Below are positions 23,706 to 24,206 of a stretch of DNA of 64,000 bases, piece by piece (position 1 is the stretch's first letter; the number at the start of each line of letters is the position of its first letter). Under the pieces are notes generated by a model. It did no database searches. It saw only the letters and a program-made list of their open reading frames with translations, and was not told the origin of the DNA. This DNA comes from an uncultured Lentisphaerales bacterium (GTDB taxonomy: Bacteria > Verrucomicrobiota > Lentisphaeria > JABSQK01 > CAJWLW01): contig CAYWQM010000014.1 of NCBI GenBank assembly GCA_964460215.1, positions 892 through 64,891 on the forward strand. The letters are read 5' to 3'. The position numbers and the translations under genes were made by a program.

Positions 23706-24206
23706 TCACTCTCTATCGCTTTGACCCAGGCCGGCGGTCTCCAGGACCTCGGATATACAGGTGTTGATGGCCTCGGCGGGACAGTGGCTCAACAAGGTCT
23801 CAACAGTTGTCTTGATTCCATCCCGCATTTCGGACACGCTTGTCGGCGGGACCAAGGCGAATCCGTTGCACGCCTCAGCGTAAATCTCGGCCGCCGGGCA
23901 AGGTTCGCACTGAGCCTGCAGGCGCAACACCAAGTGCAAAGTCGACTCCTTCTGAATATTGTAATCGGATAGTGTGCGGCCATCCTCGAGCTGTTTGCCG
24001 GCGAAGATCAAGCGCTGCTGGTCTGGCGGGATGCCCTCTTTGTCCTGGATCTTTGTCTTGATGTTCTCGATGGAGTCGCTCGGTTCCACCTCCAGGGTGA
24101 TCGTCTTTCCGGTCAACGTTTTAACGAAAATCTGCATACCTGCTGCCGAATCGGCATACAGCCCTAGAAACAATCCCATCGTTACAACCATTGCCCAGTT
24201 TCTCAT
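23706..24206 (-). CDS. Secreted eukaryote-like ubiquitin. Signal peptide (about 23 aa) + a 73-residue ubiquitin core differing from eukaryotic ubiquitin at three positions (RLRGG replaced by RLQAQ, no Gly-Gly) + a ~67-aa Cys-rich C-terminal extension.
   Basis: Translation: [23 protein letters not shown] | [73 protein letters not shown] | [20 protein letters not shown]…. Versus canonical ubiquitin only T22S, V26I and A28T differ within the first 73 residues. All seven Lys, and Leu8/Ile44/Val70, are conserved. AAGGAAGG RBS about 8 nt upstream of ATG 24206. The ubiquitin domain is at about 23910..24137. Confidence 0.85.

Follow-up and report, generated by a model that had tools for sequence, protein, structure and literature searches.

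An open reading frame (ORF) at 23706..24206 (-) of a 64,000-nt stretch of DNA from an uncultured Lentisphaerales bacterium (the window, on which gene coordinates are given here) was found to encode a 166-aa protein with an ATG start, in which a nearly exact copy of eukaryotic ubiquitin follows a signal peptide and precedes a small cysteine-containing module. The gene had been pointed out in an earlier reading of the same DNA made without database searches (the sequence-only reading), and its translation was as quoted there. The gene was confirmed to be bacterial and is a shortened member of a class of signal peptide-ubiquitin (SP-Ub) proteins found in many phyla. The best explanation, at a probability of roughly 0.45, is that a predicted exported, non-conjugatable ubiquitin(1-73) with its module, derived by deletion from a longer member of this class, serves non-covalent display or mimicry of ubiquitin toward eukaryotes. 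If true, this explanation would imply a widespread cross-kingdom mimicry system that is undescribed in the literature searched.

A Near-Exact Ubiquitin Core Behind a Predicted Signal Peptide

The profile search proposed in the sequence-only reading gave a match of PF00240 to residues 26-96 (E = 6e-32; 109.6 bits against a cut-off of 25.4), which covered profile positions 1-71 of 72, and ubiquitin chains from the PDB aligned to the protein at E values of ~1e-42. Over ubiquitin positions 1-73, 70 of 73 residues (96%) were identical to human ubiquitin, corresponding to 69/72 over positions 1-72. The PDB alignment agreed with the earlier observation that T22S, V26I and A28T are the sole differences, and the seven lysines and the L8/I44/V70 patch were seen to be intact, as had been reported. 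In an AlphaFold2 (AF2) model of the mature protein, the beta-grasp fold characteristic of the ubiquitin family was formed by strands 2-6, 12-16, 41-45, and 66-71 and helix 23-34, with a predicted local distance difference test (pLDDT) score of 82-92.

The C-terminal RLRGG of ubiquitin is replaced by RLQAQ (the protein reads LVLRLQAQC), and Gly-Gly is absent everywhere past residue 73. No E1, E2, or E3 genes and no JAB or deubiquitinase (DUB) genes were present in the Pfam annotation of neighbors within ~10 kb. Because Gly-Gly is missing and no E1/E2/DUB genes lie nearby, the ubiquitin moiety is not conjugatable; it lacks the (L)RGG for activation by E1. The sequence-only reading had come to the same view.

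The residues ahead of ubiquitin Met1 comprise a basic n-region, a 15-residue hydrophobic core, and an AAG motif that abuts Met1 (A at -3, G at -1), in agreement with the in-frame signal peptide proposed before. The same signal peptide was found at two related loci (L001 and L085), and a near-identical one in the otherwise unrelated passenger protein P0003. Sequence rules, together with the AxA-MQIF junction that recurs throughout the class, point to Sec export and to cleavage at Met1, between AAG and MQIF. The predicted mature product has 143 aa and carries an extra domain behind ubiquitin.

Bacterial Origin of the Gene

The GC content over the gene was 0.56-0.59, the same as in its surroundings, while the upstream intergenic region was AT-rich. 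The GC content at third codon positions (GC3) of the ubiquitin part was 0.78 at a window GC of 0.59, which placed it on the regression line of the class (r = 0.90) and supported the GC-adapted codon usage that had been noted earlier. Both genes that flank the ORF are bacterial, as also stated before; they encode an AMP-binding acyl-CoA synthetase and a secreted collagen-repeat protein (the fibre gene).

The exact 166-aa protein, with the same neighbors, was also found on a 98-kb ENA scaffold and in the Logan assembly of another run; these two assemblies were 99.6 and 99.5% identical to the window at the DNA level. In locus L001, from a Lentisphaeria metagenome-assembled genome (MAG) in GTDB, a collinear stretch contains an ortholog with 92% identity across the full 166 residues, and adjacency to the fibre gene, whose synteny the sequence-only reading had suggested checking, was kept in both L001 and L085. 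A metagenome scan with a profile of the tail recovered six further contigs with a signal peptide-ubiquitin-module fusion. The SP-Ub junction was thus reproduced in at least 10 independent assemblies and is therefore not a chimera. Independent assemblies, synteny, and codon amelioration together ruled out contamination and chimeric assembly and confirmed that the gene is bacterial and belongs to Lentisphaeria. The earlier reading had described it as a genuine bacterial gene in a host resembling the Planctomycetes-Verrucomicrobia-Chlamydiae (PVC) group, to which Lentisphaeria belong. Both the host and the community around it are marine Lentisphaeria and not Bacteroides.

A Class of Signal Peptide-Ubiquitin Proteins

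One genome per GTDB species was scanned, which yielded 396 near-eukaryotic ubiquitin stretches, of which the best 80 were examined. The class was defined by one ubiquitin right behind a Sec signal peptide, small residues at positions -3 and -1 before Met1, at least ~87% identity to eukaryotic ubiquitin 1-72, host-like codons, and a passenger, anchor, or surface module C-terminal to ubiquitin. At 47 of these 80 best loci, in many phyla, one copy of ubiquitin came immediately after a canonical signal peptide, so that BfUbb of Bacteroides fragilis is not the sole comparable bacterial case, contrary to the sequence-only reading. Some 30 of the 80 were polyubiquitin or ribosomal-fusion fragments, mostly on contigs <1.3 kb; such short-contig fragments are eukaryotic contamination and were left out of the class. 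The window gene shows the junction, identity, and codon usage of the class.

Isolates with complete or large-scaffold genomes that carry class genes include Paenibacillus sp. FA6, Limnohabitans sp. DCL3, and several Dyella species, and further isolates are Methylolobus aquaticus, Rhodoferax lacus, Conexibacter, and Rhodobacter amnigenus. Ruminococcus albus 8 provided a 48th SP-Ub locus, outside the alignment of 47 proteins. MAGs with class genes were assigned to Verrucomicrobiota, Planctomycetota, Kiritimatiellia, Bacteroidota, Clostridia, Coriobacteriia, and Binatia.

Across the 47 proteins, the consensus read AxA and then exactly human ubiquitin 1-74, where conservation ended; the residues before Met1 were AxA in 26 and VxA in 11 proteins. 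Identity to human ubiquitin 1-72 ranged from 63 to 71 of 72 residues, with 26 positions invariant. K6, K27, K29, and K33 were invariant and K11, K48, K63, L8, I44, H68, and V70 nearly so, and variation clustered at positions 16, 19, 20, 22, 24, 26, 28, 57, and 65. Pairwise synonymous divergence was saturated (median proportion of differing synonymous sites, pS, 0.87), against a nonsynonymous value (pN) of 0.076, and ubiquitin GC3 followed flanking GC over 48 loci (r = 0.90, p = 5e-18). These genes are old, bacterial, and host-ameliorated, and their products are under strong constraint to remain ubiquitin. LRGG was kept in only 9/47 proteins, and the class does without conjugation.

The C-terminal partners of ubiquitin were surface or anchoring modules: an autotransporter beta-domain in 10/47 proteins and, in others, GLUG, Listeria-Bacteroides repeats, SLH, bacterial Ig and cadherin-like domains, pentapeptide repeats, PEP-CTERM, IPTL-CTERM, or DUF6345. 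Judging from the topology of autotransporters and C-terminal anchors, ubiquitin would form the outermost domain of these proteins. Four Dyella loci encode free-standing SP-Ub(1-73) proteins as short as that of the window allele, which has only the three-helix module, where its ancestral form carries Ig-like and DUF6345 parts. No partner gene was universally conserved across the class.

Several further observations were made at class loci. In Dyella and Collimonas (L004:6825-7928, L005, L067, L069, L073, and L078), a ~368-aa secreted protein with about seven 'LSDFGNSxQG' repeats and no Pfam or PDB match always preceded a short SP-Ub(1-73 to 1-76) on the same strand; it is not encoded in the window and may be a dedicated partner of short SP-Ub proteins. 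Another protein not encoded in the window, of ~330 aa and likewise without Pfam or PDB match, adjoined ubiquitin-autotransporter genes (L002:6817-7803 (-), L007, L010, L019, L028, and L039) in Methylophilaceae, Burkholderiaceae, Rhodoferax, and a MAG labeled Bacteroidota (L010); its 'ELINHS' motif looked SET-domain-like by eye only. In two archaeal MAGs labeled Methanobacteriota (L025:2248-2930 and L031:7652-8450), near-exact ubiquitin was embedded in a protein with an archaeal pilin-like hydrophobic start (VSPVIATILMVAITVVL) and was succeeded by a Cys-containing C-terminal region in place of Gly-Gly. Polyubiquitin-like, partly disrupted repeats occurred inside long contigs of bacterial MAGs (L023, OZ255840, a 6.65-Mb chromosome; L041, a 181-kb contig) and may represent misassembly or genuine insertions. 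Signal peptides of Verrucomicrobiaceae, Planctomycetes, and Kiritimatiellia loci (L017, L046, and L049; ...GLFLCLSAGSAEA, ...LLLFCLAAGSAGA) resembled that of the window by eye, a hint that, in the PVC group, ubiquitin and its signal peptide move together as a unit.

The Window Gene Is a Deletion Allele of a Longer Gene

In L001, L088, and L089, the frame of the window gene runs on through a 793-codon ORF whose product has ~770 aa, and L086 has the same long form, cut by the contig end. This form consists of signal peptide, ubiquitin, Cys module, an Ig-like (Hoc-like) stretch, and DUF6345 (E = 4e-64). The window was collinear with L001 except for the absence of L001 ~1816-3448 (~1.63 kb): in a three-way alignment it tracked L001 to ~1815 (GGCCTGG) and resumed at L001 ~3449. 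At the junction, the L001 sequence up to GCCGGCCTGG is joined to what follows CAGGCCTGG in the 3' end of DUF6345. The window gene is therefore a deletion allele that lost ~1.63 kb between two GGCCTGG microhomologies. The junction shifts the frame, so that the final codons, GQSDRE and stop, are an out-of-frame reading of the L001 DNA for AWFEAIESDQPD. Since a remnant of DUF6345 persists downstream in the window, out of frame, L001 represents the ancestral and the window the derived state. In a tblastn search with the L001 C-terminus as query, the remnant ended in SVGPDIR--DIGSGSTVTIF (stop) in a second frame. The sequence-only reading had taken ubiquitin plus a Cys-rich domain as the architecture of the protein; that layout is instead the product of the deletion in a ~770-aa SP-Ub-module-X-DUF6345 gene.

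L085 and L087 shared the identical junction and had a different ubiquitin core and linker (TMDVEPSDTIENVKAK; RLRVQC), which indicates that the short allele persisted long enough to diversify. L090 is a long form with an extra Ig-like insert and a frameshift directly after the module, attributable to a second disruption or to a sequencing error. DUF6345 had no sequence relative in the PDB, and no paper on its function was found; our impression is of a candidate His/Cys dyad resembling the one in clan CD peptidases.

The Tail Module

The sequence-only reading had described a 67-aa tail with six Cys. The tail comprises 70 residues after L96 with five Cys, and its last six residues belong to no domain. 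Modeled alone by AF2, it formed a three-helix bundle (helices 9-22, 28-42, and 48-61; pLDDT 88.5, predicted template modeling score, pTM, 0.74). In the model of the mature protein, ubiquitin and tail were two independent domains joined by a lower-confidence linker (residues 73-80); with a pTM of 0.54, the model gave no fixed docking of the tail on ubiquitin, for which an AF2 check had been proposed.

An exhaustive HMMER search of 1.84 billion representatives returned only four real relatives of the module. All four are secreted proteins that end in the module, which comes behind thrombospondin-type-3-like Asp-rich repeats, and their passengers are unrelated (FG-GAP-like repeats and others). 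Word-index searches with the tail alone and with the tail profile returned nothing, and a word-index search with the full-length protein returned so much eukaryotic polyubiquitin that it was uninformative. A Foldseek search of the tail model against the PDB gave no match at E<1 and only generic three-helix bundles. The five Cys were conserved throughout the small family. The module is probably disulfide-stabilized, and the odd number of Cys suggests that one is free or intermolecular. A role in docking or oligomerization is a guess.

The 928-bp contig that encodes P0003 (L083) begins with an RBS and signal peptide (L083:1-96) that are 84% identical in DNA to window positions 24140-24238. A second copy of the RBS and signal-peptide segment follows the P0003 gene (L083:875-928), which points to tandem paralogs with a constant signal peptide and C-terminal module and a variable middle part.

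Maintenance of the Short Allele and Its Possible Role

The three closest assemblies differed at 3 nucleotides in the ORF, all synonymous and one of them a TCN-to-AGY serine switch at ubiquitin position 22, and at 10 in 445 nt downstream. In the comparison of window and L085, in which all divergence postdates the deletion, the ORF had diverged by 3.4% and the adjacent remnant by ~19%, with indels. The ubiquitin core had a ratio of nonsynonymous to synonymous divergence (omega, dN/dS) of 0.26, with five replacements that all fell at class-variable positions. Compared with L001, dN/dS of ubiquitin was 0.04. It is probable that the ubiquitin part is maintained in the short allele; maintenance of the module is uncertain.

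Under the preferred explanation, the protein would be exported by the Sec system and cut by signal peptidase I to leave ubiquitin Met1 as the mature N-terminus, yielding ubiquitin(1-73), a flexible linker, and the small three-helix module. The ubiquitin moiety would then work non-covalently, as a displayed or released ligand and never as a conjugated modifier, and ubiquitin-binding proteins of eukaryotic grazers or hosts may read it as real ubiquitin. In the short allele, ubiquitin might be released in soluble form or held via the helical module, as opposed to being carried on a long protein. Recognition as real ubiquitin is proposed because the class keeps residues that are dispensable for folding, while the Bacteroides ubiquitins BfUbb and BoUbb, which act on a bacterial periplasmic peptidyl-prolyl isomerase (PPIase), have drifted to 61-63% identity (PMC3352274, PMC11467351). 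More tentatively, many bacteria of at least eight phyla, both free-living and from the gut, and some archaea may expose or release authentic ubiquitin whose sequence is kept for eukaryotic readers, with the window gene as a soluble short variant. As part of the same cross-kingdom mimicry, it is conceivable, with similar reserve, that selection on class ubiquitin is about as strict as in eukaryotes.

Ubiquitin fusions improve stability and solubility and are established in biotechnology. In line with this use, ubiquitin might have a structural role in the class, as a stable, fast-folding, protease-resistant N-terminal cap or solubility module without a specific partner; it is always N-terminal, it is joined to many unrelated passengers and anchors, and its Gly-Gly is dispensable. 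However, an identity of 88-99% is unneeded for folding, the seven lysines and surface D32-D39 are essentially invariant, the repurposed BfUbb diverged to ~63%, and many other beta-grasp domains would do equally well, which makes such a purely structural role quite unlikely.

Several points weigh against a eukaryote-directed role of the window protein. No class protein has been linked to a eukaryotic partner by experiment or direct computation, it is not evident where an exported protein would encounter ubiquitin receptors, which are cytosolic, most hosts are free-living and have no known association with eukaryotes, and export past the periplasm is unproven in the diderm host. Between window and L085, linker and module showed 5 replacements against 1 synonymous change, and the post-truncation omega of the whole ORF (0.53) was not significantly below 1 (p = 0.17); the short allele could be drifting. 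Synonymous divergence from L001 was very uneven along the gene (signal peptide 0, ubiquitin 0.66, tail 0.14); such a mosaic hints at intragenic recombination or cassette exchange and weakens simple dN/dS reasoning.

The same post-truncation values, with omega at least 1 in linker and module, would suit a non-functional relic, that is, a truncated pseudogene that is still undisrupted. The frameshifting internal deletion took the C-terminal four-fifths of the protein, and the long gene in L090 is likewise broken right after the module. Such a relic is nevertheless unlikely: five assemblies from two sub-lineages have kept the ORF, its RBS, and its signal peptide intact, divergence in the ORF is about fivefold lower than in the remnant next to it, where further indels and frameshifts have accumulated, ubiquitin replacements are confined to class-variable positions, and several Dyella class members are naturally as short.

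Ubiquitin is regarded as a eukaryotic hallmark, and the class reveals a far larger set of bacterial ubiquitin genes. These are old, host-adapted, and strongly conserved, and they place near-exact ubiquitin at the start of predicted exported, mostly surface-anchored proteins, which raises the question what selects the eukaryotic ubiquitin sequence outside the bacterial cell. Culturable carriers are found in Dyella, Limnohabitans, Paenibacillus, and Ruminococcus albus 8. Automatic discarding of ubiquitin genes in bacterial bins as contamination is unwarranted, and anti-ubiquitin reagents may cross-react with environmental and gut bacteria.

Other Features of the Locus

Features of the locus are listed in Table 1. 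The RBS, which had been recognized in the sequence-only reading, also precedes the paralogous gene on L083. The promoter pattern was found 2 times against 1.4 expected from shuffled sequences and is thus weak evidence; the upstream region (24218-24337) was well conserved with L001.

Table 1. Sequence features of the ubiquitin gene and its immediate surroundings in the window.
Feature	Position	Strand	Basis
Predicted Sec (signal peptidase I type) signal peptide, residues 1-23	24138..24206	-	n-/h-/c-regions
Ubiquitin residues 1-73; all seven Lys and L8/I44/H68/V70 kept, without Gly-Gly	23919..24137	-	PF00240, alignment, AF2
Linker QAQ and five-Cys three-helix module, residues 97-160	23727..23918	-	AF2, HMMER
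GGCCTGG microhomology at deletion junction	23726..23732	-	Three-way alignment; L085 and L087 alike
Out-of-frame codons GQSDRE and TGA stop, made by the deletion	23706..23726	-	L001 reads AWFEAIESDQPD in other frame
Decaying DUF6345 3' remnant in two frames with extra indels; ancestral stop after TVTIF	23635..23731	-	tblastn of L001 C-terminus
Ribosome-binding site (RBS) AAGGAAGG, 7 nt before ATG	24214..24221	-	Read from sequence
Sigma-70-like promoter candidate TTGCAA-17-TACAAT, AT-rich upstream region	24308..24336	-	Consensus match, weak
Terminator-like hairpin CCCCGGG-TTT-TTCGGGG, then T-run, between remnant and fibre gene	23318..23334	-	Pattern match only

An antisense ORF at 23974-24441 (+) overlaps the ubiquitin gene and recurs at many loci. 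It was rejected as a gene, as its recurrence stems only from the conservation of ubiquitin and creates spurious 'conserved neighbor' clusters.

Directly downstream of the ubiquitin gene, the fibre gene at 21012-23261 (-) encodes a 749-aa secreted protein with three ~100-aa internal repeats, collagen G-X-Y at residues ~600-680, and a five-Cys C-terminus; its repeat number differs between window and L001. The C-x2-C...C...C...C spacing of this C-terminus suggested the Cys module of the ubiquitin protein, a relation that was rejected as unsupported by the tail HMM and by hhalign (probability 0.5%). The fibre protein matched tail-fibre PHROGs only via its collagen G-X-Y stretch, the ubiquitin protein matched neither PHROGs nor phage records, and a phage origin was discarded. 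In L085, the remnant of the ubiquitin gene and the fibre gene are set apart by an extra ~0.8 kb (L085:8420-9238) that the window (~23499-23510) lacks.

Comparison With Known Ubiquitins and Ubiquitin-Like Proteins

With the ubiquitin-like proteins (Ubls) of bacterial conjugation systems (E1/E2/JAB operons; ThiS/MoaD-type Ubls), the window protein has the beta-grasp fold in common. Those Ubls are cytosolic and diverged, end in Gly-Gly, and are encoded beside E1, E2, or peptidase genes, none of which applies to the window protein. With eukaryotic ubiquitin it shares 70/73 residues, the seven lysines, the L8/I44/H68/V70 patch, and the predicted beta-grasp. Eukaryotic ubiquitin is made from polyubiquitin or ribosomal-fusion precursors and is cytosolic, whereas the window protein has a signal peptide, occurs as a single copy without RGG, is predicted to be exported, and is encoded by a gene with bacterial codon usage and neighbors. 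A similar combination of signal peptide, ubiquitin, and short extension, used outside the producer, is found in the secreted ubiquitin carboxyl-extension effectors of plant-parasitic nematodes, as summarized in PMC5705921. According to this summary, these effectors are eukaryotic, are delivered into plant cells, and have their extension cleaved after Gly-Gly (PMC5705921); the window protein is bacterial and has no such site.

B. fragilis and later B. ovatus have been named as the only bacteria with eukaryote-type ubiquitin (PMC6194340, PMC11467351). BfUbb is cleaved by signal peptidase I at ubiquitin residue 1, lacks Gly-Gly, and is secreted (PMC3352274, PMC5705921); a C-terminal disulfide is needed for killing, the target is a periplasmic PPIase of the Tyr119 type, and entry into target Bacteroides proceeds via the SusCD-type transporter ButCD (PMC11467351). 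The window protein resembles BfUbb and BoUbb in eukaryotic-ubiquitin ancestry, in a signal peptidase I-type peptide before ubiquitin residue 1, and in the absence of Gly-Gly. BfUbb is a stand-alone 76-aa protein, whereas the window protein has 143 aa in its predicted mature form, carries a helical module, and derives from a ~770-aa ancestor. As the sequence-only reading had remarked, BfUbb is far more diverged from ubiquitin, with 63% identity (PMC3352274) against 96% here.

These likenesses raise the alternative of an interbacterial toxin of the BfUbb type, a secreted ubiquitin that enters competitors and inhibits a periplasmic target such as PPIase. The sequence-only reading had offered an antagonistic toxin and a decoy for the host ubiquitin system as candidate roles. 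The layout, in which a signal peptidase I peptide ends at ubiquitin residue 1, Gly-Gly is missing, and Cys lie close to the C-terminus, is that of the only characterized bacterial ubiquitins (PMC5705921, PMC11467351), and the four free-standing Dyella proteins would also fit. However, the disulfide of BfUbb sits within its own ubiquitin C-terminus, while the ubiquitin core of the window protein is free of Cys, all five being in linker and module. Moreover, the Bacteroides proteins have drifted while the Lentisphaeria protein and its class are under strong selection for the eukaryotic sequence, most class members are anchored on the producer surface and not diffusible, and no immunity-like or SusCD-type partner was present near the window gene. 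Because the eukaryotic sequence is so extremely conserved, a bacterial target as for BfUbb is disfavored and very unlikely, and a eukaryote-directed role fits better.

Full-text literature searches, which left subscription journals mostly uncovered, found no description of SP-Ub surface proteins beyond Bacteroides, and NCBIfam has no model for them, its only match being a Rad23 Ubl domain below the cut-off. That the putative secreted mimic is undescribed, as suggested earlier, holds for the literature searched; the ubiquitin-plus-Cys-domain layout on which that suggestion partly leaned is a deletion product. Secreted bacterial ubiquitin homologs are a known kind of protein; the part that is new relative to the literature searched is the SP-Ub class, of which the window gene is a shortened member.

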